In this document: piece by piece, positions 36,005 to 50,073 of the stretch
How positions within the stretch are numbered: the stretch's first letter is position 1
Layout: each line of letters opens with the position of its first letter
Source: Lytechinus pictus
Lineage: Eukaryota
Reading direction: 5' to 3'
NCBI RefSeq assembly: GCF_037042905.1
Contig: NC_087251.1
Location: 37,202,001 to 37,266,000 of the forward strand
Length of the DNA stretch: 64,000 nt
Position numbers and translations under genes: made by a program
Notes under the pieces: generated by a model
The model's database searches: none
What the model was told of the DNA's origin: nothing
What the model saw: the letters and a program-made list of their open reading frames with translations, nothing else

Positions 36005-38502
36005 ACTAGATTTTAATTCGTCATGCGGACGAATTAGGTGGTCTGTCGTATAGATAGATAAACAGGAAAAACATATTTAAACAGATATTAGATTGAAAAA
36101 TAGATAGACAAACAGATTTACATAATCAAACAGATACATACAAGAAAGATATATAATTATAGTAGATGGATGGAGTGATGGATGGAGAGATCAATTATAG
36201 GTGGTTATATTAATAAAACATAGACATATAGATAGATAGAGACACAGACATATAGATAGATAGAGAGACAGACTTATAGATCGATAGATTGATTGATAGA
36301 TATATAGATAGATAGAGAGAGAGAGAGATGATTGGTGGTTATATTAATAAAACATAGATAAACATATAGATAGAAAGAGAGACAGACAGATAGATAGATA
36401 GACAGATAGATCTAGACAGACATATAGATAGAGAGACAGACATATCATGAAGCTATTACGAGCTATCTCGTAAGAGACAGACATATAGATTGATAGAGAG
36501 ACAGAGATAGATAGAGAGACAGACATATAGATGAATAGATAGATAGCTAGATAGAGAGACAGACAGACAGATATATAGATAGATAGATAGATAGATAGAT
36601 AGAGACAGGCAGATATATAGATGGCTAGATAGATAGACATATCTAAACAGATAGATACATATATATAATAATTAAATATAATTATATATCATAATGTATG
36701 TACATTTTCTCATGTTAATTTTATGTTTATAACAAGATATATTGTGATTGTTTTTTTAATATGCAGGACCCCAAGGGAGAGCAATTTTTTGTTGATTGGG
36801 TATCCTGTTGAAATATTGTTAATAAATAAATAAATAAATAATAAATATAGCGTATTAGACACACAGAGAGAGAGATAGATAGATAAACAGACAGAATAGA
36901 TATACAATGTAGGTAGATAGACAGACAGACATATGGATAGATAGAGAGAGAGGGACGTATTCAAACAGAAAAATATATATTAGACAGAGAGATGTGATGT
37001 AGGTAGATAGACAGACAGATAAATAGATATGATATAAAAAGTAATTATAATCTGTTTTATTTTGCAATATTTTAGCTATTATTTGTTAGAATTCTTATAA
37101 TTGATCGGGGGCAAGATAGCTAAAAAAAAAAAAAATCATGTTCACCCGCGGACTCGAACCCCTGCCTGCATGATGGAATGAGAAGTAAGTCTGACGCCTA
37201 ACCGATTGAGCTAGAATATTTCCCATAGACTTTACACGTAAGCAAAACACGAGAATCTCAAATCCAATCTTGCAAGTAAAATACGGGCATGATCCCGGCA
37301 TCTGATCGAAAAATAAAGGGACACAACCGAAAGCTTAGAATCTCAGCTACACCATACTAAAAGCTCAGGGATAACTGGCAACAAAAATTGGAGATATGGC
37401 TTATGAAATAGAAGAATGTAGAATCTAGTTTTGAGAAAAAGTCATGTCCCATAGAGATTACACGCAAAATGAGTAAAAGTGACATGCCTTTATTATTTGC
37501 AATTTTTGAGGATGATCTGTTTATCAAAATGAAAAATAAAGGCAATAACTCAGGAAGAATAAGACCTAAGCTACAACATATCAAAAATTGGGTGAAAATT
37601 GACCAATATTCACGGAGTTAGAGCCAGATTTGCATAATTATAATGACGTCATAATACGCAAAATGGATATTTTGACTTCCGACGCCATTTTGATGACGTC
37701 ATAATATAATTGAGGGTCAAATGAGACATGAAATTATAACTCTAGTTCATACTCTATCAAAATATGGAAAAAAAATTGGGGGTCCCCATGCGTTCTGAAG
37801 AGCTACAGCGGATTTTCTATAGGCATGTTTTTGCCCATATATGGCCTATAGTGAGAGCTCGCGCGCACACGTGCTGCAAACTTTAACGGGTGTTAATTTC
37901 CTTATTAATGATCGTAGAAGGTTGATCAAGGCATCAAATTACTCAAAATTATATTATCAATGCAATGATATAAAAAAAACGGTGTTTCTGAGTTGCATTG
38001 AGGCGTTACGCGCGGAAACGCGCGCGCATACGTTTGCGCGCGCAATTTTTTGAAATGCTTAAAATGACCTAAAACGTACTCTGTTTTGGTCAAAAAATGA
38101 TTTTGAGCATTTTAAATTTTTTACGCGCGCGTACGCGCGCGTCGTGACCTACAGGTGACCTTTGATGACATGACCTGATGACCCTTAATCTGAAGTTTAT
38201 GTCATGTGAATTTGATTGATTTTTGATAATTGATAATGGAGATATGATTGATAATGTGATTTTACAAAATGGCGTCTAGATGACGTCATGATGACGTCAT
38301 GACATTAAGATTCTTGCAGAATTGAGGTCTTAATGATGTTGATATGTGGTGATATTTTGATGATTATTGAATATGAACTTTCTGAGATTTGCTGTCCACA
38401 AGAAATGGAGGAAATAAAAATAAGAAATAATAAATAATAAATAATAAAGAAAGAAAATTCGGACAAACATAAAAGGTGATCTGTCATAGACAGACCACCT
38501 AA
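36005..38502 (+). mobile_element. HINE-like element family D (~2.5 kb) with GATA/GACA microsatellite
   Basis: Hairpin AATTCGTC-ATGCG-GACGAATT plus subTIR TTAGGTGGTCTGTC at 36034. The other end is AGGTGATCTGTC-ATA-GACAGACCACCTAA (subTIR with partial inverted copy). Confidence 0.7.
36048..37035. repeat. Compound (GATA)n/(GACA)n/(GA)n microsatellite
   Basis: Direct observation. Confidence 0.9.
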
Positions 38503-39385: not shown

Positions 39386-39814
39386 CTGCAAAAAGAATGG
39401 TTTTCACATCAAATTTTGAACAGGTACAATATCCACAAGGTCAAATAAAGGCCTATTATTTATTTTCTAAATCTAATAGAGAGAGTAGGAAAGAGAGAAA
39501 TAGTATGTGTGGGGGAGGGTGATTATGTGTGTGTGTGTAAGGGTGAGGGTGGGTGGGTGTGAGTGTGATGCAGTTTTCTCTATAAATTAATTCATTAAAA
39601 TTGGCAAAATCCAATGATAATAATAATGATATCTTCTAATTCGCTTCGTTAAAAGCTCAATCACATACAAACCGCCTAGGCAGCCCAGCTAAAGCCGGGG
39701 TAATAGTAATAGCATTGCCCGCTGGGAGAACAGATTTCAGAACTGAAGTGGCTTCCCTGGGTAAATATACCTATATTATTATTATTATTATTATTATATT
39801 ATTAAACATAATAC

Positions 39815-41369
39815 TGTAACGATCCTGCAACTAGGATCGTGACGTAAACAATCAGCCCTGCGCATGACCATTGTTTACTCATTATTCATAGCTGTTGCGA
39901 GAATTTATTCAACCGTGAGTATTATGTCTTTCGGTTATTATTAGAAATTACTTAAGATTTCATATTCCAAAATGATTAATGTATAGGTTTTAATATGAGA
40001 CCTCTATTTTTAATGAAGATATGTTAGGAGATAAGTTGTTTTGCAGAATTGGTGTAGATATAGATTGAATACCGGTAATTCATCACTGGCTGTGTTTATG
40101 TACGTACATGGTAATTTGCATAAGAGCGCAGCCGCGGCGTATTTGCATAAGTGCGGATGAGCGTTTGGAGTGCACACGTCCGATCGCAGCGCTGGCAGGT
40201 TTTGATAGATTTTTGACGAATTCATATCTTTTTAAGTACTGATATGAATGGTTCTGTATATATTTCATTGCAAAAAGATATATTCTTTTGGAAACGTATC
40301 GACTTATTGAATGTTTTGTAGTAATGAACGAGAAATTGAGAATAAACCGGCTTCAATAAAACACAGTTCGAGTTCTCTGTACATTATACGCTGCGCGTAG
40401 ACGTGTGTGTGCTATCCAAACTCGCTCGGCGCACCGTTTTCACCTACGTCCGCAACTTGTCCATATAAATAAGAGACGTTTAATCGCGGGGCTGGCACAA
40501 ACAACGGAAATCTGACTGCAGAAGACTTGCCACGGGGAAGACGTTGGAAAACTTGGAAAGGTAAACAGACGCAGGAAACAAGCCTATAGCCAAGGCCTAT
40601 AGACGCTGGAAACCTCGATATGAATTTAATTAAGTCCCTATATTAACCCATATGTATGAATATGAGAATTCCCCAATAGAGGTCCAAATTAATTAGAGTA
40701 TAGATCTTGCTATGATATAAATTTTCTTAATAATTATTTTGGGCGAGCGACCTGAAGTAAATAGTCCAGGAATCAATCTCTTCGTATATATCAACGCCGG
40801 AATTAACAGACGTGGAAACGAATGTCGAGACTGGGAAGCTGGAAATAGAATTTTTCTCTTAACAAGCTAGACGCCGGTTAGATTTGGAAAATTCTTATAC
40901 TTGGAGGCCCAAAATAAAAGTTTAATAATTATCCATTATATTTCTCTGATAACAAATACATCTTAGAGCTTATTTGTAAATATTAGACATTGTTTACCTG
41001 TAACAGTGGCGAGTCAAGTAAAGTACATGTATATATATTTATGCAATTTGAATAATAAAGTGCACCATTATTTTTCTTTTTGCCATTGAAACTAAAATCT
41101 GAGTCACAAACCCGTGTCTTTCTTTGCTGTGTACCCCCGTAGTCATATATTTTGACGAAACGACCCTTGATTGCAAATAATCTATAGCGAGCCGCTCTAG
41201 CATTTTCTTCCACTCTTATAATAATTCTCTTGGAAACTGCATGCTCGGAAGATATTGAGATAGACAAGAATGGAAATAGAGGAAAGCTCAGGTGATCCAC
41301 CAAAGACTGAACACCATCCTGACGTAGAGGTCGGAATGGAAGAAATAAGCGAGAGCGGCGGCCGCTACA
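39815..41369 (+). repeat. 5' LTR (1555 bp)
   Basis: TGTAACGATC..GGCCGCTACA, directly repeated at 48094-49650. Confidence 0.97.
40464..40470 (+). promoter_or_regulatory. Candidate LTR TATA box
   Basis: TATAAAT within a CpG-richer part of the LTR, ~90 nt upstream of a splice-donor consensus. Confidence 0.4.
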
Positions 41370-42712
41370 AAATTGGTGTCAGAAGTGGGATAAACATGGA
41401 GGGGGTACCGCACAGAGAGAGGGAAATAGATGAACTAAGTTGTTCCTCTGAAGAAATAATGTCTAATGCAATAAGCTCAAAGATAGATAATAGAACAGAG
41501 AAAACACAGAGTCGCATTATGAAGCAATTATCAAACTTAATGGCCCAAATGATGAATCTGAGTAAGAAGACAAAAAGAAGAAGAAGACGTGCAGGTCCAG
41601 AATCTACCACAGAGGAAATGTCAGACTCCTTGGACGATAGTGAAGTGGAATTCGTTTTCAAACCAAATAGACGACCGGAAATCGTCCAAAAACTAGATAC
41701 CAAACACGAGGAAGGAAAATCAGATGTCGAGAAAATGCCGGAACTGGAAGAAACTAACAAACCACAGGCAAATAACAAATCTAGCTTCAAGGAGATGAAA
41801 GCTCAGGAAACTAACACCCGTCCACTGATCATGCCAGACAAGTATGATGGAAGTACGGACTGGGAAGATTACAGCTCGCATTTCGAATCTTGTCGTGGAA
41901 TCAACAACTGGAATGATGAAGAATCAGCTAAGTATCTTGCCACAAGCTTAAGAGGACCAGCCCTGAGACTTTTAGGAGAACAGAGGGGGACAAAGTGGAA
42001 CTTTGAAGAAATAAAGGATGTATTATCATTCAGGTTCTCTTCTGCAAAGCAAGCAGAAAGCTATTTGATGGAACTCAGGAATCGTAGGAGACGTCAGGGA
42101 GAATCACTCCAAGAATTAGGTCGTCACATTAGAGAACTAACTGCCAAAGCATACCCAAACTTCGACAGTCAGGGAATTGATAGGTTGGCTAGAATTCATT
42201 TTACGGATTCTATTCGCAGTAGTGAGATTCGCATGGGGATATTTCATGCTAAAGCAACTAGCCTAGATGAAATGATTCGAGCAGCAATCACAAGTGAAAC
42301 GTTTCTACAGACGGAAGCTGAGCGAAATGGGTGGAAGAAGCCTGCCTATAATAGAGGGATCGTCTCTGATGTTGATCTAGAAAAGATAATCAAAGATGAG
42401 GTTGCCAAAGCCATAGGACAAGCTATGGAAAACCGACCTGGGAATGAGAGAGTAGAGGAAGATGTCAGGAAGATTAGAACCAAACAGATACCAAACCAAC
42501 CAACGCGTGATGAGAAGATGAGATGCTTCTATTGTGATCAACCTGGCCACTTTGCGAGGGAATGTCGCAAGAAACAAAGAGATGTACAAAGACAAAACTT
42601 AAACCAAGTTGATTCGCCTTGGCCAAAACAAACAGGAGCTAATCGTTATCACCGGTCAAACGACCAGTGGTCGTCCCAACGGGTCATGGGTCGGCCAGAA
42701 GCCCAGAATTAG
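41270..42712 (+). CDS. gag: Gag (480 aa from the first ATG; alternative start at 41396)
   Basis: Capsid-like PDKYDGSTDWEDY..F segment, CCHC knuckle CFYCDQPGHFAREC, and basic cluster KKTKRRRRR. Confidence 0.93.
   Translation: MEIEESSGDPPKTEHHPDVEVGMEEISESGGRYKIGVRSGINMEGVPHREREIDELSCSSEEIMSNAISSKIDNRTEKTQSRIMKQLSNLMAQMMNLSKKTKRRRRRAGPESTTEEMSDSLDDSEVEFVFKPNRRPEIVQKLDTKHEEGKSDVEKMPELEETNKPQANNKSSFKEMKAQETNTRPLIMPDKYDGSTDWEDYSSHFESCRGINNWNDEESAKYLATSLRGPALRLLGEQRGTKWNFEEIKDVLSFRFSSAKQAESYLMELRNRRRRQGESLQELGRHIRELTAKAYPNFDSQGIDRLARIHFTDSIRSSEIRMGIFHAKATSLDEMIRAAITSETFLQTEAERNGWKKPAYNRGIVSDVDLEKIIKDEVAKAIGQAMENRPGNERVEEDVRKIRTKQIPNQPTRDEKMRCFYCDQPGHFARECRKKQRDVQRQNLNQVDSPWPKQTGANRYHRSNDQWSSQRVMGRPEAQN
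41374..41391 (+). promoter_or_regulatory. Primer-binding site complementary to tRNA-Leu 3' end
   Basis: TGGTGTCAGAAGTGGGAT, 4 nt after the 5' LTR, is the reverse complement of ATCCCACTTCTGACACCA, which I recall as the 3' end of metazoan tRNA-Leu(CAA). Confidence 0.88.
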
Positions 42713-45700
42713 ACAAGACCCACAGAAATCAGAAGACAAGTTTCGTACCAAGTATAAATCATAACATTGATGGTCTATATGTACCAATACATATTCAGGA
42801 TGAAGAATACAAGTTTTTAATTGATACTGGTGCGTCAGACTCTTACATTTCAAGACGAGTCTATGAACAATTAGATGAAAGGAAAAGGCCTCCACTGCAA
42901 AGTCGAGATGTCATTGCATTTTTAGCAGATGGTTCGCCATTAGCCATATATGGAGCAATAACTCATGAGATGACGATAGGCCCTAACAAAGGACTAATAA
43001 CTGTATTGGTAGCAGATGTTAGTAGTGATGGCATACTCGGTTTGGATAATCTCACTAAGATGGGAGCCAGCATTGATCTTAATAATTTCCAACTAACTAC
43101 AAAATGGGGAAAAGTCGAATGCAGTAATGAAACTGGCAAGAAGTTATTCTGTCGTATAGTTGCGTCAGAAACCACTACTATCCCAGCTGGTAACGAAGCT
43201 GTGATCCTTGGAACAACGAAAGAAAGAATAAAACCAAACACATTGGGCTTAATAGAGGCTGGAAACGCCCAACATCAACTTATGAAGAAAGGTATCATTA
43301 CTGCAAGGACATTAATCACAATGGGCGAGGATTTGGTGCCTGTTAGTGTTAGAGTATTTAACCCTTCTTCATCAAACAAAGTCATAATGAAGAATACACC
43401 TATCGCTACCATGACAGAAATAGATAGGAATGAGATTCAAGAAGTTCCCAAATACACCACTGTTAGTGATGGAAAGGTACAAGACCACTTAAGAGACCTA
43501 TTAAACAGAAGTACAGAAGGAGTGGCAACTGAGTATCACCACGAAATAGAAAAGTTGTTGATAGAATTTCAAGATATCTTTTCCAAGGGAGATGACGACA
43601 TTGGAAGAACAAATCTGGTTCAACACAAGATTGATACTGGAACTCAGAGACCTATCAGACAACGCCCACGCAAACACCCATTTGGACAAAGAGAAGAAAT
43701 CAAGAAGCAAGTAGATGATCTACTTGAAAAGGAACTTATCGAACCAACTGACAGCCCTTGGGCTTCAAACATTGTGCTCGTCAAGAAAAAGGATGGATCC
43801 CAGCGATTCTGCGTAGATTATCGACAGCTGAATGCTGCCACAATCAAAGACGCATATCCCTTACCTAGGATAGACGAAACTTTGGACGCTCTGTCAGGAG
43901 CAAAGTGGTTCTCAACCCTGGACTTGGCAAGTGGGTATTGGCAAGTAGCCTTAGATAAAGATGCAAAGGCAAAGTCCGCCTTCCTGGCTGACGGCGGACT
44001 CTACTCATGGAATGTGATGCCTTTTGGTCTTTGTAATGCCCCAGCAACATTCGAGAGGTTAATGGACAAAGTTCTAACTGGACTTCACTGGCAGACGTTA
44101 CTTGTATATTTGGATGACTTGATCATATTTGGAAAGTCCGTAGAAGAAGAACTCTGCCGACTACGAGAAGTATTTCACCGACTACGACAAGCCAACTTGA
44201 AGTTAAAACCGAAGAAATGCCATCTGTTCGAACGGAAAGTCGACTACTTAGGACATGTAGTCTCAGATGAAGGTGTTTCAACACAAAACGAGAAGATTGA
44301 TGCTGTGCGATCATGGCCTACACCTCGGAATGTGAAAGAAGTTCGAAGTTTCTTAGGACTTGCATCCTATTATAGACGATTTGTTGAGGGTTTGGCAACC
44401 ATTGCTAAACCGCTTCATCAATTGACAGAGAAGGGTCGTGCCGGACAGTTCATATGGAGCTCTGTCTGCCAGACCGCTTTTGATGAACTCAAGCAAAGAC
44501 TGATCTCAGCACCAATCTTAGCATATCCAAGTACCGAAGGAGAGTTCATACTGGATACTGATGCAAGCAAAGAGGGAATAGGTGGGGTGCTGTCACAAGT
44601 ACAAGACGGAAAGGAAAGAGTGACCGCTTATGGAAGCAAAGTTCTTAGCAAGGCGGAACGCAATTATTGTGTCACCCGTAGAGAACTTTTGGCGGTTGTT
44701 ACATACTTGAAGCATTTCAAGCAATATCTGTATGGTAGACATGTTAAAGTAAGGACAGACCATGGAGCTTTAAGATGGCTTACAAACTTTAAGCAACCAG
44801 AGGGACAGTTAGCCAGATGGCTAGAGGTTATATCCACTTATGACACAGAAATAATTCATAGAGCTGGAAGAAGTCATGGCAATGCTGATGCGCTTTCAAG
44901 GCGTCCATGTAGACAGTGTGGAAGAGAGAATGATTGCGGGATTGAGCATTCAGACACTAACTGCAGACGCACTTGTGTTATTCAGATGTCAGACGTAACA
45001 GGTAATAACAGAACTGAGATGAGGAAGGCTCAGCTTGAAGATACAGGTATTAAGCCGGTAATAGAAGCATTGGAACAAGTCAGGAAACCTACCAAGGAAC
45101 AGATGTCTTCTTTGTCTTTCAGAGCGAAGGTATTACTTGGGCACTGGGGGCAGCTTGAGATGGTAGATGGGGTACTTTATCGGAACTGGGAGTCGGGAGA
45201 TGGAAAAACTTCTAGACGGAGACTTGTGTTGCCCAAGCAAAGAGTACAAGAAGTACTGGAAGAAATTCATGGTGGCAAGTTGGGTGGACATTTAGGGTCC
45301 ATGAAAACTTTGAGAAGTGCCCAAATTCGCTATTACTGGGTGGGAATGAAGGCAGATGTGAGATCTTTCATTCGACAATGTTTGATGTGTGGGAAAAGGA
45401 AGTCCCATGGAAGAAAGAAAAGAGCGCCGTTACAACAGAGACGATCTGGTGGTCCGTTGGAGAGGATTGCACTTGATATAATGGGACCCTTACCAACTAC
45501 TGAAAATGAGAACAAGTACATATTAGTTGTGGCAGACTATTACACAAAATTTGTGGAAGCATACGCCATCCGCAATGAACAAGCACATACTGTGGCAAAT
45601 AAGCTAGTTGAGGAATTCATCTGTCGTTATGGGGTACCAAAGGAAATACATTCAGATCAAGGTCGCAATTTTGAGTCTAAGTTATTCAAGGAAGTCTGCC

Positions 45701-46464
45701 AAATTCTTGGTATTAAGAAGACTAGAACCACCGCTTATAACCCAAAGTCTGATGGGATGGTGGAAAGATTTAACAGGACCTTGCTAGGGATGATCGGAAC
45801 AATGATAGATCCTGACAAACATCAGAAAGATTGGGACAAATATGTTCCCTTTGCGACAGCCGCTTATAGAAGTGCGGTACATGAAACCACTCAAGAGACG
45901 CCAAATATGATGATGTTTGGGCGAGAGGTTACTCACCCAATGGACTTGTATGTTGATCGACATAAGGAAAATGAACTTGAAACTGACTACGCAGCCAATC
46001 TTCGAGACAGAATGGAGGAAATGTATTCTTCTGTGATGAAGGAAGGGGAAACTAACTTGAGAAGACAGAAAAGGAACTATGATGCAACTATGTTTGGGGA
46101 AACCTTTAACGTTGGGCAATATGTTTGGCTACGGAACGATGTAAGGAAGAAGGGAGTGAGCCCTAAACTCGCAAACAAATGGGAAGGTCCATTTCGTGTG
46201 ATGAGGAAGATGTCGGAGGTCACGTTTCGCATCCAGAAAAGTCCTAGATGTCGTGCAAAGGTGGTCCACTTCGACAGACTAAAGAAGTATGAAGGAAATG
46301 AACTATGTAACTGGAACCAGGTCACCGACCAGACTAATGATGATGAAACCACAGACCAGAGTACAGAACGAGACGAGGGAAATGACGAAGAACCAAATGG
46401 AAGTGAGGAAGGATCTGGTCGCTATCCAAGACGAAGTCGCCGCCCTCCTAATTATTTTTATTGA
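42643..46464 (+). CDS. pol: Pol polyprotein (protease, RT, RNase H, integrase), -1 frame relative to gag
   Basis: FLIDTGAS (PR), LVYLDDL (RT), ILDTDAS (RH), HHCC, ALDIMGP / HSDQG / GMVERFN (DDE) and WEGPF (GPY/F). Uninterrupted; the frame is open from 42643 and overlaps the gag 3' end. Confidence 0.97.
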   Translation, partial: SLSPVKRPVVVPTGHGSARSPELDKTHRNQKTSFVPSINHNIDGLYVPIHIQDEEYKFLIDTGASDSYISRRVYEQLDERKRPPLQSRDVIAFLADGSPLAIYGAITHEMTIGPNKGLITVLVADVSSDGILGLDNLTKMGASIDLNNFQLTTKWGKVECSNETGKKLFCRIVASETTTIPAGNEAVILGTTKERIKPNTLGLIEAGNAQHQLMKKGIITARTLITMGEDLVPVSVRVFNPSSSNKVIMKNTPIATMTEIDRNEIQEVPKYTTVSDGKVQDHLRDLLNRSTEGVATEYHHEIEKLLIEFQDIFSKGDDDIGRTNLVQHKIDTGTQRPIRQRPRKHPFGQREEIKKQVDDLLEKELIEPTDSPWASNIVLVKKKDGSQRFCVDYRQLNAATIKDAYPLPRIDETLDALSGAKWFSTLDLASGYWQVALDKDAKAKSAFLADGGLYSWNVMPFGLCNAPATFERLMDKVLTGLHWQTLLVYLDDLIIFGKSVEEELCRLREVFHRLRQANLKLKPKKCHLFERKVDYLGHVVSDEGVSTQNEKIDAVRSWPTPRNVKEVRSFLGLASYYRRFVEGLATIAKPLHQLTEKGRAGQFIWSSVCQTAFDELKQRLISAPILAYPSTEGEFILDTDASKEGIGGVLSQVQDGKERVTAYGSKVLSKAERNYCVTRRELLAVVTYLKHFKQYLYGRHVKVRTDHGALRWLTNFKQPEGQLARWLEVISTYDTEIIHRAGRSHGNADALSRRPCRQCGRENDCGIEHSDTNCRRTCVIQMSDVTGNNRTEMRKAQLEDTGIKPVIEALEQVRKPTKEQMSSLSFRAKVLLGHWGQLEMVDGVLYRNWESGDGKTSRRRLVLPKQRVQEVLEEIHGGKLGGHLGSMKTLRSAQIRYYWVGMKADVRSFIRQCLMCGKRKSHGRKKRAPLQQRRSGGPLERIALDIMGPLPTTENENKYILVVADYYTKFVEAYAIRNEQAHTVANKLVEEFICRYGVPKEIHSDQGRNFESKLFKEVCQILGIKKTRTTAYNPKSDGMVERFNRTLLGMIGTMIDPDKHQKDWDKYVPFATAAYRSAVHETTQETPNMMMFGREVTHPMDLYVDRHKENELETDYAANLRDRMEEMYSSVMKEGETNLRRQKRNYDATMFGETFNVGQYVWLRNDVRKKGVSPKLANKWEGPFRVMRKMSEVTFRIQKSPRCRAKVVHFDRLKKYEGNELCNWNQVTDQTNDDETTDQSTERDEGNDEEPNGSEEGSGRYPRRSRRPPNYFY

Positions 46465-46590
46465 TTGTAGAAGTTTTCTGTTCAAAGTCCAATCAACCAA
46501 GATATTAAAAAAAAAAAAAAATAGATAAATAATAATAATACCCGCACTATTGGAAGCGCTGATAATATGTTCTTTTCATTTCCTGCATAG

Positions 46591-47464
46591 ATGAACCGCC
46601 ACGTGAGACGCCTGGTAAACTTCCAACGCAGGCCATTGAGCTTCCGATGTCGTTACTGTGAATACCGAAGTACGATACAAGAGATGGTAAAGTTCCATGA
46701 AAAGGATATACATCGGCAGGACAGAGCTCCATTAACAAAGCCTATCCCTCCTCGCTACCATTCCTCATCGACTTCCAGAAGGTCTGATCGACGCAAGTCC
46801 CCAGTGAGAAAGATCGAGCTCACCCATACCGATCTCGAGATGCCAGCCATCATTTCTCCCCTTGCCTCGCCCTTGAGGACGGATAGAGCTGATGAGCCCG
46901 AATCAGTGTCGACTAAAGGACTAAAGCCAGTCTTGGCTGAGGAATCGGTCTCGGCTGAGGAATTGGGGCCAGTCTCGGCTGAGGGATCAGGAACAGTCTC
47001 GGATGAAGAGCCAGGACCAGTCTCGGATGAAGAGCCAGGAACAGTCTCGGATGAAGAGCCAGGAACAGTCTCGGATGAAGAGCCAGCTAGGAACAGTCCC
47101 GGATGAAGAGCCAGGAACAGTCTCGGATGAAGAGCCAGGACCAGTCTCGGATGAAGAGCCAGGAACAGTCTCGGATGAAGAGCCAGGACCAGTCTCGGAT
47201 GAAGAGCCGGGATCAGTCTCGATCTTGGAAGAAACCTGGGAGGAAATTCTCTCCAATAACCAATCGACACAGACTGAGGTGGATTACCTTTTCTCCGAGG
47301 CCCATACCATCCGATCGGCAGGTGGAGCCACGACGATGAGCCACTCTTGGGATAGAGCTGTAAACCACAACGTACGACACACCGTAGAGACTCTAGTTCT
47401 CCCAGATGGGACGAGATATACCCGCTTCTCATACGAAGAACTTGGACGTGGAACAGAGGAATGA
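46591..47464 (+). CDS. Retrotransposon ORF3: C2H2 zinc-finger / acidic-repeat protein, frameshifted by a 4-nt insertion at ~47087 (289 aa if repaired)
   Basis: N-part FRCRYCEYRSTIQEMVKFHEKDIH, then (SDEEPG[T/P]V)n continuing in another frame to a unique C-terminus. 874 nt minus 4 = 290 codons. A splice acceptor abuts the ATG. Confidence 0.75.
46931..47222 (+). repeat. 24-bp coding tandem repeat (~12 units)
   Basis: Unit TCGGATGAAGAGCCAGGA(A/C)CAGTC; one unit carries 4 extra nt. Confidence 0.95.
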
Positions 47465-48079
47465 TTTTATGTATATTCACGTTGTATATTATATATTTCT
47501 CTTGCATCTTTCATCTATTCCTAATGTTCTTTCTCTTTCTCCTTCTACTACTTTCCCACTCTCTTTCTCTTTACTCTATCCTTCTATTTCTGTATAAAAA
47601 TGAATTTGTAAATATGTTCACTTTTGTAACGCCACTGAGTAGAGTAATTAATAAACTTATAGTAGGAATTGGATACCAATGATTTCTTCCAAGTTCTAAA
47701 ATTAATTCAGAAAGATTCACCACTGAAATGAGTGGAGTGAAATTGGTTTTATTTGGCAGAGTCAGACGCTGCTTCTTGAACTATAAGTATAAGTGCTGAA
47801 AATTTAAAGTAATGTTTGATTGATCGGATGATGATGGTGATTGTATGGTGATGCCAATTTTAGTACAAAAGATTAATGAGAGAAGAGGTGAGCTATCAGA
47901 GTATTAAGAGTTAAGAAGCAATTGCTGACAATCTTCCAAATACCAACTTTTCTTTTGTTTGAATCTTTGTGACTATTTCTGTTGATAAATAAATATGACT
48001 GATGTAATGCTTAATATCTTACTTGGAAAAAGGACTTGGTTATCCATGTAGGTTTTGAAAATGCGAGGACGCATTTCGT

Positions 48080-48090
48080 AGAGAGGAGGG
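48080..48090 (+). promoter_or_regulatory. Polypurine tract
   Basis: AGAGAGGAGGG, 3 nt before the 3' LTR. Confidence 0.85.
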
Positions 48091-48093
48091 CTG

Positions 48094-49650
48094 TGTAACG
48101 ATCCTGCAACTAGGATCGTGACGTAAACAATCAGCCCTGCGCATGACCATTGTTTACTCATTATTCATAGCTGTTGCGAGAATTTATTCAACCGTGAGTA
48201 TTATGTCTTTCGGTTATTATTAGAAATTACTTAAGATTTCATATTCCAAAATGATTAATGTATAGGTTTTAATATGAGACCTCTATTTTTAATGAAGATA
48301 TGTTAGGAGATAAGTTGTTTTGCAGAATTGGTGTAGATATAGATTGAATACCGGTAATTCATCACTGGCTGTGTTTATGTACGTACATGGTAATTTGCAT
48401 AAGAGCGCAGCCGCGGCGTATTTGCATAAGTGCGGATGAGCGTTTGGAGTGCACACGTCCGATCGCAGCGCTGGCAGGTTTTGATAGATTTTTGACGAAT
48501 TCATATCTTTTTAAGTACTGATATGAATGGTTCTGTATATATTTCATTGCAAAAAGATATATTCTTTTGGAAACGTATCGACTTATTGAATGTTTTGTAG
48601 TAATGAACGAGAAATTGAGAATAAACCGGCTTCAATAAAACACAGTTCGAGTTCTCTGTACATTATACGCTGCGCGTAGACGTGTGTGTGCTATCCAAAC
48701 TCGCTCGGCGCACCGTTTTCACCTACGTCCGCAACTTGTCCATATAAATAAGAGACGTTTAATCGCGGGGCTGGCACAAACAACGGAAATCTGACTGCAG
48801 AAGACTTGCCACGGGGAAGACGTTGGAAAACTTGGAAAGGTAAACAGACGCAGGAAACAAGCCTATAGCCAAGGCCTATAGACGCTGGAAACCTCGATAT
48901 GAATTTAATTAAGTCCCTATATTAACCCATATGTATGAATATGAGAATTCCCCAATAGAGGTCCAAATTAATTAGAGTATAGATCTTGCTATGATATAAA
49001 TTTTCTTAATAATTATTTTGGGCGAGCGACCTGAAGTAAATAGTCCAGGAATCAATCTCTTCGTATATATCAACGCCGGAATTAACAGACGTGGAAACGA
49101 ATGTCGAGACTGGGAAGCTGGAAATAGAATTTTTCTCTTAACAAGCTAGACGCCGGTTAGATTTGGAAAATTCTTATACTTGGAGGCCCAAAATAAAAGT
49201 TTAATAATTATCCATTATATTTCTCTGATAACAAATACATCTTAGAGCTTATTTGTAAATATTAGACATTGTTTACCTGTAACAGTGGCGAGTCAAGTAA
49301 AGTACATGTATATATATTTATGCAATTTGAATAATAAAGTGCACCATTATTTTTCTTTTTGCCATTGAAACTAAAATCTGAGTCACAAACCCCTGTGTCT
49401 TTCTTTGCTGTGTACCCCCGTAGTCATATATTTTGACGAAACGACCCTTGATTGCAAATAATCTATAGCGAGCCGCTCTAGCATTTTCTTCCACTCTTAT
49501 AATAATTCTCTTGGAAACTGCATGCTCGGAAGATATTGAGATAGACAAGAATGGAAATAGAGGAAAGCTCAGGTGATCCACCAAAGACTGAACACCATCC
49601 TGACGTAGAGGTCGGAATGGAAGAAATAAGCGAGAGCGGCGGCCGCTACA
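48094..49650 (+). repeat. 3' LTR (1557 bp)
   Basis: Copy of the 5' LTR. The only difference I saw by eye is 2 extra nt at ~49393 (CAAACCCCTGTG vs CAAACCCGTG). Confidence 0.97.
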
Positions 49651-50073
49651 ATACTATACACAAGATACATGCGTTTGAGTTGGGCCCATTTCCGTTACAA
49701 CTCAAATTTTCCTCCAAAATCGCACCGTACGTTTCATACAATTGCATTTTTTTTTAATGTTTGACATCCTATACCCATAAAAGTATTCTGAAAGGAAATT
49801 GTCTGAGGAATTCAAAAATGCAATCAGAAAAGGCATAGGGTAATGTCATAAAAAGTTAAAGGTCAAATCATGTGGAAAACTGTGAAAAATATATACTTCC
49901 CAATAAATCTGAAAATCAGATAAATCTTACACCCTATAGGAAAATAACATGCATATTTCAACTCTTTAGAAAGAGACCTTTCCAATGATATATAACTTGG
50001 CAAAAAGAAGCTGCTGAAAACTGCTTATCTAATAAAAGAGAGCCAATGGAGTAAATTATAAAGTCAAAAAGGG

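Follow-up and report, generated by a model that had tools for sequence, protein, structure and literature searches.

The stretch of DNA analysed (64,000 nt; hereafter, the window) carries on its forward (+) strand a 9.8-kb Ty3/Gypsy element (39815-49650), which is the carrier of the third open reading frame (ORF3) considered here. The element is flanked by the target-site duplication ATAC, read directly from the sequence (39811-39814 on the 5′ side and 49651-49654 for the 3′ copy), and is bounded by paired long terminal repeats (LTRs) with TG...CA ends, delimited by self-alignment and by their termini, corresponding to a 5′ LTR of ~1556 nt (39815-41369) and a 3′ LTR (48094-49650). The alignment of one LTR with the other (39815-41370 versus 48094-49651) comprised 1558 columns, with no mismatches and a single gap. 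A primer-binding site (41374-41391), presumably tRNA-Leu-like, begins with TGG 4 nt past the 5′ LTR. The gag gene is an open frame of 438 codons (41396-42712) with a CCHC zinc knuckle (PF00098, E 5.3e-6), and pol (42643-46464) is found in the -1 frame relative to gag, which it overlaps by 70 nt. Pfam matches in the open frame of pol included Asp_protease_2 (residues 47-135, E 2.4e-7), RVT_1 (380-539, E 1.4e-36), RT_RNaseH_2 (E 4.2e-35; RT_RNaseH at 605-733), Integrase_H2C2 (864-921, E 9.5e-18) and rve (938-1034, E 1.2e-14), an order (PR-RT-RNase H-IN) that fits Ty3/Gypsy, and the Pfam search returned no chromodomain match for the integrase. Downstream, an AT-rich 3′ non-coding region (47465-48093), recognized by its composition and sequence, ends with a polypurine tract (48080-48090); this region was found in the three young copies of the element and partially in two older ones, which together make up a small family in this genome. 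The carrier is, in this way, a young Gypsy-type element with near-identical LTRs.

ORF3 lies after pol and before the 3′ LTR, in the position of env, and the earlier note was right in describing it as the third ORF of a Gypsy element, since it is placed inside the LTR-bounded element, 3′ of pol. The spacer that separates it from pol (46465-46590) contains an A15 run (46507-46521), a branch-point-like CTGAT and a pyrimidine tract ending in an AG that abuts the ORF3 ATG at 46591, besides a 7-codon uORF (46567-46590) whose terminal TAG also abuts this ATG. The acceptor-like context was kept in three diverged copies, and the last ~35 nt of the spacer were kept in the copies at C3:28.55 Mb and C3:42.44 Mb. 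No splice donor with at least 8/9 consensus positions was found across 39815-46590, and the sole 7/9 site in 40600-42000 was at 41292. None of the 18 sequencing runs found is on record as RNA, and in the contigs from four runs over 39815-48093 the eight joints listed included none at 46590 and none of the GT..AG type, a result that is uninformative on expression and splicing. The AG at 46590 may be a splice acceptor, a candidate recognized as a sequence motif.

It was claimed in the earlier note that ORF3 was intact over 46591-47464, which was not confirmed. This interval comprises 874 nt, which is not divisible by three, and the ORF list and its translations showed that the first part of ORF3 (46591-47106, frame 1) has 171 codons up to a premature stop at 47104-47106. 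The comparison of repeat unit lengths located the frame-shifting event in the unit at 47068-47095, which has 28 nt rather than 24 nt, thereby bringing frame 1 to its stop at 47104-47106 and placing the tail of the protein in frame 2; all other units of the window copy, and every unit of the sibling copy C18, have 24 nt. The ORF3 of the window copy is therefore broken. In the sibling copies C18 and C10 of the same assembly, ORF3 is open, with 297 and 305 aa, respectively, which means that two of the three young copies have an open ORF3 and that the window copy is the frameshifted one. The claim that the GC-richer composition ends at the stop was borne out, as the GC content of 0.48-0.56 within ORF3, which is also higher than that of gag-pol and the flanks, drops to 0.30-0.33 immediately downstream. 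An antisense ORF of 251 aa (46755-47510) was considered as an alternative gene and rejected, since it owes its openness to the absence of stops from the repeat in that frame, and the best-conserved N-terminal part of ORF3 (N-part, 46591-46926) lies mostly outside it.

Four parts make up the ORF3 protein: a basic N-terminal region that includes a C2H2 zinc finger, a basic linker, an acidic array and a tail. The earlier note had described a C-x2-C-x12-H-x4-H motif, an Arg/Ser- and SP-rich stretch with ISPLASP, ~12 acidic 8-aa repeats and a unique ~75-aa tail, and all of them are present, the tail being non-repetitive. The single finger (residues 17-44; 46639-46722) was recognized by its motif, conservation, profile match and predicted fold. 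Its spacing, C20-x2-C23-x12-H36-x4-H41 (residues 20-41), agrees with the C-x2-4-C-x12-H-x3-5-H rule, and the ligands C20, C23, H36 and H41 were invariant in the four aligned rows, down to 37% identity; in a five-row comparison, four rows kept the finger spacing, which was altered in a decayed C2 fragment. The best Pfam match for the finger was PF23225, with 17.2-18.3 bits, below the gathering cut-off of 27. The ORF3 profile matched the solved ZFY finger 5znf (E 0.0033) with the whole finger aligned, and the likeness to the ZFX/ZFY fingers (5znf, 1klr) included the C-x-Y-C-E-Y-R-S start and the H-x4-H end. In contrast to ZFX/ZFY, ORF3 has one finger instead of a tandem array, its score stays under the Pfam cut-off, and the remaining protein is unrelated. 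An AlphaFold2 model, built from an alignment of only four sequences and with a mean pLDDT of 51.9, predicted a beta-beta-alpha finger (strands 18-19 and 26-27, helix 29-40) with a moderate pLDDT of 60-70. In the open sibling protein, residues 1-50 have a pI of 10.8 and 13 K+R.

The linker (residues 51-112; 46741-46926), delimited by composition, is basic (pI 10.4) and Ser/Arg/Pro-rich, with three SP sites, and carries KSP and ISPLASP, the motif ISPLASPL being invariant in alignment A2. It is followed by a tandem array with a period of 24 nt and 11.5 copies (46940-47221), encoding acidic 8-aa units of the type SDEEPGxV. In the open sibling, the array (residues 113-216) contains 35 D+E and no K+R and has a pI of 4.05, and ORF3 as a whole presents nine SDEE motifs and 24 S/T-x-x-D/E sites; the array was predicted to be disordered (AlphaFold2 pLDDT <50). 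The C-terminal tail domain (47228-47464, in frame 2 here according to the ORF list) ends at the stop at 47462-47464 and comprises ~80 aa, for which AlphaFold2 predicted, with pLDDT 70-85, two helices (223-229 and 234-240) followed by four strands (243-248, 254-261, 268-276 and 282-290). Foldseek against the PDB gave no matches for this fold at E <=0.001, and a wide VIA-align search gave a best Z of 6.4, with none >=8, an absence of match that is no proof of a new fold. The prediction of a tail homodimer scored 0.00 and carries no weight either way.

ORF3 is not Env, since it has no hydrophobic segment: in the open sibling, the maximum Kyte-Doolittle mean over 19 residues was 0.62. With this value and a basic N-terminus, neither a signal peptide nor a membrane anchor was found, and ORF3 had no Pfam match to any Env or fusion-protein family at E <=1, which upholds what the earlier note had argued in this respect.

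The distribution of ORF3 in its own genome follows that of the element. The earlier note had asked whether homologues lie 3′ of Gypsy pol, and in this genome six of the seven groups of ORF3-like loci have ORF3 downstream of a same-strand Gypsy pol, namely the three young copies and those at C3:28.55 Mb, C3:42.44 Mb and C2:18.68 Mb. A search of this genome at E <=0.01 gave 62 matches, all of them known loci or repeat-only, and no paralogue of either the N-part or the tail that is not part of an element. Non-coding DNA at C3:42.44 Mb and C14:9.06-9.11 Mb also contains pieces of ORF3 that have been multiplied or dispersed. For the next-closest Gypsy family, with 64% aa identity in pol and at least 30 copies, neither the single copy read (a 5-kb region) nor a six-frame genome search revealed an ORF3 homologue, which indicates that ORF3 is dispensable for Gypsy elements generally.

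Beyond this genome, an unnamed database protein, P0028, was 39% identical to ORF3 over residues 1-134 (BLASTP E 1e-21) and has the finger and ISPLASPL in common with it; the tail is poorly conserved in P0028, as it is in the C3:42.44 Mb copy. When P0028 was used as query against the genome, only the five known loci were recovered. Among the best 150 of 272 BLASTP matches (E <=0.001), 148 aligned best with the acidic repeat or its surroundings, and the two non-repeat ones were P0028 and the multi-finger protein P0124; eight of the 150 were inspected individually. A word-indexed protein search gave no match for residues 1-125 (71 candidates) or 217-297 (10 candidates), and with P0028 as query it returned only P0028 itself (328 candidates). 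A scan of metagenome contigs with alignment A2 yielded 196 pattern matches, none of them confirmed. In the ESM Atlas, the neighbours of the N-part, which were either unnamed or small C2H2 clusters, shared no more than 97-136 of 256 features with it, and there was no usable match for the tail. The relatives found were, altogether, diverged same-lineage copies and P0028.

The earlier note had suggested examining dN/dS, which was estimated by NG86 between the window-lineage ORF3 and the diverged copies (dS 0.3-0.7). In the comparison with the C3:28.55 Mb copy, the N-part presented 19 synonymous versus 10 non-synonymous changes (dN/dS 0.13, Fisher p 3.5e-7), and the tail a dN/dS of 0.27 (p 0.0058). 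In the comparison with the C3:42.44 Mb copy, the values were 0.26 for the N-part (p 1.5e-6) and 0.53 for the tail (p 0.07). In the N-part, the remaining two sense frames yielded 0.92 and 2.7. Judged from these substitution patterns, with dN/dS of 0.13-0.27, purifying selection acts in the ORF3 frame only, and the behaviour of ORF3 is that of an element gene under selection.

It is quite probable that the element has in ORF3 an accessory gene that is under selection and does not encode Env. As to what it does, the ORF3 protein would be a nuclear regulator of the element that binds nucleic acid. Its basic N-terminal helix and ZFY-type C2H2 finger would bind element DNA, in the LTR, or element RNA, nucleic-acid binding being suggested by the one finger; the Ser/Arg/Pro linker would supply proline-directed phosphosites together with clusters resembling an NLS; the (SDEEPGxV)n array, rich in CK2-type sites, would be a disordered acidic module for activation or recruitment; and the small beta-rich tail might dock a partner protein. 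For the translation of ORF3, splicing to the AG at 46590 would probably produce a subgenomic mRNA. The reading preferred here is that of a DNA-binding transactivator of the element's own LTR, although a specifically transcriptional role is possible rather than probable. Taken as a whole, the statement that ORF3 is a genuine non-Env accessory gene of one Ty3/Gypsy lineage and a nuclear regulator working by this mechanism falls somewhat short of being probable.

A second reading, considered rather unlikely, is that ORF3 is a post-transcriptional regulator like CERV of the Cer1 element or retroviral Rev, in which the finger and the basic regions would bind unspliced genomic RNA and aid its export, stability or packaging, while host factors for export or chaperoning would be recruited by the acidic phospho-repeat together with the tail. 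The CERV study (PMC10309623) provides a precedent, with a Cys-rich putative finger and proline-directed phosphorylation, and in ORF3 the SP sites and basic clusters adjoin the finger. Moreover, Pur-alpha repeats, which are single-stranded nucleic-acid binders, were among the best small-domain fold matches of the tail (Z 5.6, with rmsd 2.2 A over 50 residues, and 5.5; PBF-2 at 4.8). However, all these scores are below background (typical best Z 7-8), and the order of helices and strands differs, since the PUR/Whirly-type fold has a four-stranded sheet and then a helix, whereas in the tail model the helices precede the strands. In addition, ORF3 has 297 aa against the 517 aa of CERV, no leucine-rich export signal is evident in it, and the arrangement of a finger with an acidic array behind it is classically that of activators binding DNA and not of an export adaptor.

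It is quite unlikely that ORF3 is instead a chromatin tether, an integration-targeting adaptor or a silencing antagonist, in which a chromatin or silencing factor would be bound by the finger or the tail, with the acidic array serving as a DNA mimic or as a binder of histones. Long acidic S/D/E arrays are known in histone-binding and nucleolar proteins, and the integrase without a chromodomain match makes a separate targeting factor conceivable. Against this, ORF3 had no Pfam match to chromatin readers.

Several observations would also suit a passenger, that is, a captured host-gene fragment (e.g., one ZFX/ZFY-like finger plus a repeat) that renders no service to the element. The GC content of ORF3 exceeds that of gag-pol and the flanks, ORF3 is confined to one small lineage, the window copy is already broken, the finger resembles host-type ZFY fingers and the multi-finger protein P0124, and pieces of ORF3 have been spread as non-coding DNA, as described above for C3 and C14. 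This reading is nevertheless improbable, because the purifying selection is frame-specific over dS 0.3-0.7, the same architecture is found in the 39%-identical P0028, and the genome search at E <=0.01 gave no non-element paralogue of the N-part or tail. Finally, two features only, the place downstream of pol and an acceptor-like motif reminiscent of the way in which Drosophila gypsy expresses its env, would be expected of a degenerate or highly reduced envelope gene. This possibility is almost certainly wrong in view of the missing signal peptide, membrane segment, fusion-protein features and Env family match (maximum hydropathy 0.62, basic N-terminus, E <=1), of a zinc finger and acidic disorder that suit a nuclear or cytoplasmic protein, and, provided that the host is an echinoderm, of a survey which reported no env-carrying Ty3/gypsy in Echinodermata (PMC13524379).

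Comparison with known systems places ORF3, read here as a probable accessory gene and possible LTR transactivator, among several kinds of extra genes. Like ORF3, the errantiviral env, with that of Drosophila gypsy as an example, is flanked by pol and the 3′ LTR and has a pyrimidine tract plus AG before its start codon, which would suit expression from a subgenomic mRNA made by splicing; in contrast to it, ORF3 has no signal peptide, membrane anchor or fusion-protein similarity. Regulatory accessory genes are an accepted hallmark of complex retroviruses, and one of these, the DNA-binding transactivator Tas of spumaviruses, is encoded near the 3′ end and has a nucleic-acid-binding region followed by an acidic region. 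The gene position and this binding-then-acidic layout are similar in ORF3, a likeness that would be a functional analogy only, with no relationship in sequence to be expected, and Tas is not known to have a C2H2 finger.

Non-envelope ORF3s were also described in the LTR retrotransposons Juno and Vesta of bdelloid rotifers, where they are absent from the earliest branches and show how LTR elements can take up additional genes as modules (PMC5408684). Those ORF3s, like the present one, are lineage-specific, located after pol and not env, but they are enzymes (GDSL esterase/lipase and DEDDy exonuclease; PMC5408684), whereas this ORF3 has no enzymatic domain, nor any recognized family beyond one zinc finger.

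The closest parallel is CERV of the C. elegans element Cer1, the only experimentally studied extra regulatory gene of a Ty3/Gypsy element that a literature search showed. CERV is a spliced, nuclear, non-Env protein of 517 aa, whose five exons are in frame with gag; it comprises the domains H, M and G and a Cys-rich, C4-type loop, and is controlled by proline-directed phosphorylation (PMC10309623). Both CERV and ORF3 are extra non-Env proteins of LTR retrotransposons, diverge fast, have no relatives beyond a narrow host group, contain a Cys-containing putative zinc-binding element and are made of structured modules on flexible linkers; CERV is regulated at an S-P site, and ORF3 carries SP sites. 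They differ in that CERV is made from a spliced mRNA, whereas ORF3 has only a conserved acceptor-like motif, and in that ORF3 is a single ORF of ~300 aa located 3′ of pol, whose protein combines a C2H2 finger of the classical type with acidic tandem repeats and a small beta-rich tail.

The earlier note had not recognized a protein of this type as described for Gypsy elements, which stands in part: since non-envelope ORF3s have already been described in LTR retrotransposons (PMC5408684, PMC10309623), the category is known, and only the protein family looks undescribed. If ORF3 were only a lineage-specific passenger, it would amount to the routine annotation of an additional ORF. If the proposal is true, it would be a second, unrelated selected non-Env gene, indicating that LTR retrotransposons repeatedly evolve their own regulators, and a small, tractable protein for studying how elements control themselves and evade host retention or silencing. 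We tentatively propose, in this sense, that this sea-urchin-like genome harbours a complex Ty3/Gypsy element that would have its own sequence-specific regulator, in which a single DNA- or RNA-binding finger is combined with a phospho-acidic effector array; made from a subgenomic RNA generated by splicing, this regulator would boost the transcription or export of element RNA, as an invertebrate counterpart of Tas/Tax/Rev-type genes from a family without a described member.

ORF3 (46591-47464, forward strand), a third open reading frame located after pol, is part of its carrier element and very probably represents a selected, non-Env accessory gene of a small Ty3/Gypsy lineage. The complete LTR retrotransposon enclosing it (39815-49650) is bounded by a 5′ LTR (39815-41369) and a 3′ LTR (48094-49650), both starting with TG and ending with CA; their 1558-column alignment is free of mismatches and contains a single 2-nt gap. 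A 4-bp duplication (ATAC) was found on both flanks, the primer-binding site opens with TGG 4 nt past the 5′ LTR, and a purine run lies directly ahead of the 3′ LTR. The gag gene (41396-42712) encodes a CCHC knuckle, and pol (42643-46464), in the -1 frame, shows the Ty3/Gypsy domain arrangement of protease, reverse transcriptase, RNase H, and integrase. AT-rich non-coding sequence of 629 nt separates ORF3 from the 3′ LTR. An earlier note had placed the ORF where env is expected, and this setting, between pol and the 3′ LTR of a complete Ty3/Gypsy element, was confirmed.

It was also observed that the gag frame has no stop in the 44 codons preceding its assigned ATG (41264-41395), reaching back into the 5′ LTR, and that it includes an earlier ATG at about 41270. 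In one sequencing run, contig depth was ~450 for the LTR (39815-41392) versus ~5 for the internal part, and contigs of two runs departed from the element at 41391-41392, just 5′ of the gag start codon. A far more abundant element may have the LTR and leader in common with this one, or many solo LTRs may exist. Upstream of the element, an imperfect GATA/GACA-type 8-nt repeat block occupies 36147-37029.

The finger motif, the Ser/Arg/Pro-rich stretch, the 24-nt array, and the non-repetitive tail noted earlier were all present in the window, and GC content fell after the ORF3 stop, as claimed. ORF3 is not Env, and its protein has no hydrophobic segment, as had also been stated. What did not hold was the continuity of the ORF: the interval measures 874 nt and is frameshifted in the window copy. 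All repeat units are 24 nt long except that at 47068-47095, which is 28 nt; as a result, frame 1 runs for 171 codons to a stop at 47104-47106, and the tail moves to frame 2. Regarding the 5′ context, an A15 run (46507-46521) lies between pol and ORF3, and a 7-codon upstream ORF (46567-46590), whose TAG abuts the ORF3 ATG, is retained in the copy at C3:28.55 Mb and not in that at C3:42.44 Mb.

The 812-Mb assembly (368 contigs, the window being on contig C7) yielded 37 matches to 46470-47700 in a DNA search and, among 115 candidates, 62 matches at E <= 0.01 in a six-frame protein search, which sort into seven groups. Groups 1-3 comprise the window copy and its siblings on contigs C18 and C10, which are 96-97% identical to the window in the ORF3 stretch and 99-100% in the pol 3′ end. 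In both siblings, gag and pol precede an open ORF3 (297 and 305 aa, respectively), and the number of repeat units differs from that of the window. Group 4, the C3:28.55 Mb copy, is 95-97% identical in the pol 3′ end and 82-92% in ORF3, with three in-frame stops in ORF3 and a 4.3-kb insertion within the 3′ non-coding part.

Group 5, at C3:42.44 Mb, comprises a frameshifted pol fragment, behind which lies a 189-codon ORF3-like frame with an altered start codon and 62% identity in residues 1-119; next come a tandem amplification of ORF3 pieces of ~8.5 kb and then the 3′ non-coding region of the element. In this array (C3:42442461-42450990), which lies within an old decayed copy, ORF3 residues ~25-52, 60-140, and 216-261 recur in head-to-tail arrangement at least 15 times, with a higher-order period of about 1.8 kb, up to the usual 3′ non-coding region; a retrotransposon accessory gene has here given rise to a satellite-like array.

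Group 6 (C2:18675000-18684999, around 18.68 Mb, minus strand) harbors a Gypsy pol of far greater divergence (46-83% aa identity), with a decayed N-terminal ORF3 fragment about 4 kb downstream (54% over residues 1-52). A second decayed ORF3-like stretch directly after pol resembles the database protein P0028 (tblastn E 2e-5) and carries its own 8-aa repeats, QPQPVELQ, followed by a WEE(Y/I)L motif, which suggests that the ORF3 architecture may be older than the lineage of the window. Group 7 (C14:9.06-9.11 Mb) consists of four fragments containing only the repeat, with 16-aa acidic units PVSDEGPESVSTEVLG, and the first ~30 residues of the tail. The surrounding sequence is duplicated and includes bits of pseudogenes resembling DDE transposases and helicases, and no pol was found in the 10-kb pieces examined. 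Thus, Gypsy pol lies upstream on the same strand in six of the seven groups. The next-nearest Gypsy family (pol 68% identical in nucleotides and 64% in amino acids) accounted for at least 34 loci (66-71% identity) among the 40 pol matches listed and has the pol end motif RYPRR..PP.Y.Y in common with the element. No ORF3 homologue was found in the one copy read, and the six-frame search gave no ORF3 match beside any locus of this family.

Outside this genome, a full HMMER scan over 1.84 billion representatives retrieved 272 matches at E <= 0.001. In 148 among the 150 matches listed, the best-matching stretch coincided with the acidic repeat or its surroundings (residues ~71-270), and the six of these inspected were unrelated proteins with acidic or other simple repeats of their own; P0124, also among those listed, is a multi-finger protein matching only through its finger. 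P0028, an unnamed 256-aa protein from a single 2.6-kb ENA contig, is a true homologue (39% identity over residues 1-134, BLASTP E 1e-21). Both proteins have C-R-Y-C-x-Y-R-S-T-I-Q-E, (I/V)ISPLASPL, an acidic stretch, and Q-T-T-E...L-F, and the called frame of P0028 extends upstream of the shared Met via pyrimidine-rich codons. Word-indexed protein searches, a metagenome scan, and the ESM Atlas provided no further relatives. In runs assigned by label to a second organism, contigs of 90-96% likeness span two stretches, one reaching without a break from pol to 217 nt into ORF3 and the other from the end of the repeat across the tail and into the LTR, indicating that a close relative with the same layout is present there.

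Selection was assessed codon by codon (Nei-Gojobori), taking the open C18 ORF3 as reference against two older copies. Against C3:28.55 Mb, dN/dS was 0.13 for residues 1-112 (19 synonymous and 10 non-synonymous changes; Fisher p 3.5e-7), 0.44 for the repeats, and 0.27 for the tail (11 and 11; p 0.0058), and against C3:42.44 Mb it was 0.26 for the N-terminal part (32 and 39; p 1.5e-6) and 0.53 for the tail (20.5 and 47.5; p 0.07), values that take in the neutral decay of old copies after insertion and therefore overestimate omega. In the N-terminal part, the two remaining sense frames, which served as a control, gave 0.92 and 2.7, so that the constraint is confined to the frame of ORF3; ORF3 is selected in its own frame. 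Moreover, when 46591-47464 was contrasted with 45295-46461 and 47571-48093 against the C3:28.55 Mb copy, synonymous divergence was 0.30 in ORF3 and 0.08 in the pol 3′ end, an almost fourfold difference, and the 3′ non-coding region (47571-48093) was 93-96% identical. This suggests a mosaic history, in which the ORF3 segment of one copy would derive from another lineage, for example by recombination.

In the open 297-aa sibling, residues 1-50 are basic (pI 10.8), and AlphaFold2, using a 4-sequence alignment, modelled a helix (3-13) and a beta-beta-alpha unit (17-40) at pLDDT 60-70. The C2H2-type finger is conserved: its four zinc ligands are invariant in the family alignment, and the family profile aligned across its full 28 positions with a solved ZFY finger (E 0.0033), the Pfam match being sub-threshold only. 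Residues 51-112 are basic (pI 10.4) and Ser/Arg/Pro-rich with three SP sites, and residues 113-216, predicted to be disordered, contain 35 acidic and no basic residues and nine SDEE motifs. The tail (217-297) was modelled as two short helices and four strands (pLDDT 70-85). Foldseek returned no tail match at E <= 0.001, and an exhaustive structural scan reached a best Z of 6.4 with none >= 8, a background level for the tool; the novel domain proposed earlier is therefore not contradicted, nor proven, and stands as a candidate.

The layout, in which a basic head bearing the finger precedes a long acidic array with many CK2-type sites, is that expected of a nucleic-acid-binding regulator, the array then serving as effector or activation region. 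CTGAT, a pyrimidine tract, and AG are conserved directly before the ATG, which would be compatible with ORF3 being expressed via splicing, from a subgenomic RNA. From this layout, we tentatively favour ORF3 as a possible transactivator of the element's own LTR. By analogy with CERV of Cer1, it might instead be an RNA export or packaging factor, which we consider unlikely, and a role as chromatin or targeting adaptor, or as silencing antagonist, is more doubtful still. The least probable of these four readings takes ORF3 as passenger sequence. Against all of these, including the favoured transactivator, stand the very small size of the family and a donor-site scan of 39815-46590 that found no good consensus.

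In the full-text literature, with few subscription journals or Repbase reports covered, no description was found of a Gypsy ORF3 combining a C2H2 finger with an acidic repeat, and the protein family appears to be undescribed. As a category, non-env ORF3s are already known: bdelloid rotifers have LTR retrotransposons with such genes (PMC5408684), and CERV of Cer1 has been studied as a spliced, nuclear, non-Env accessory protein (PMC10309623).
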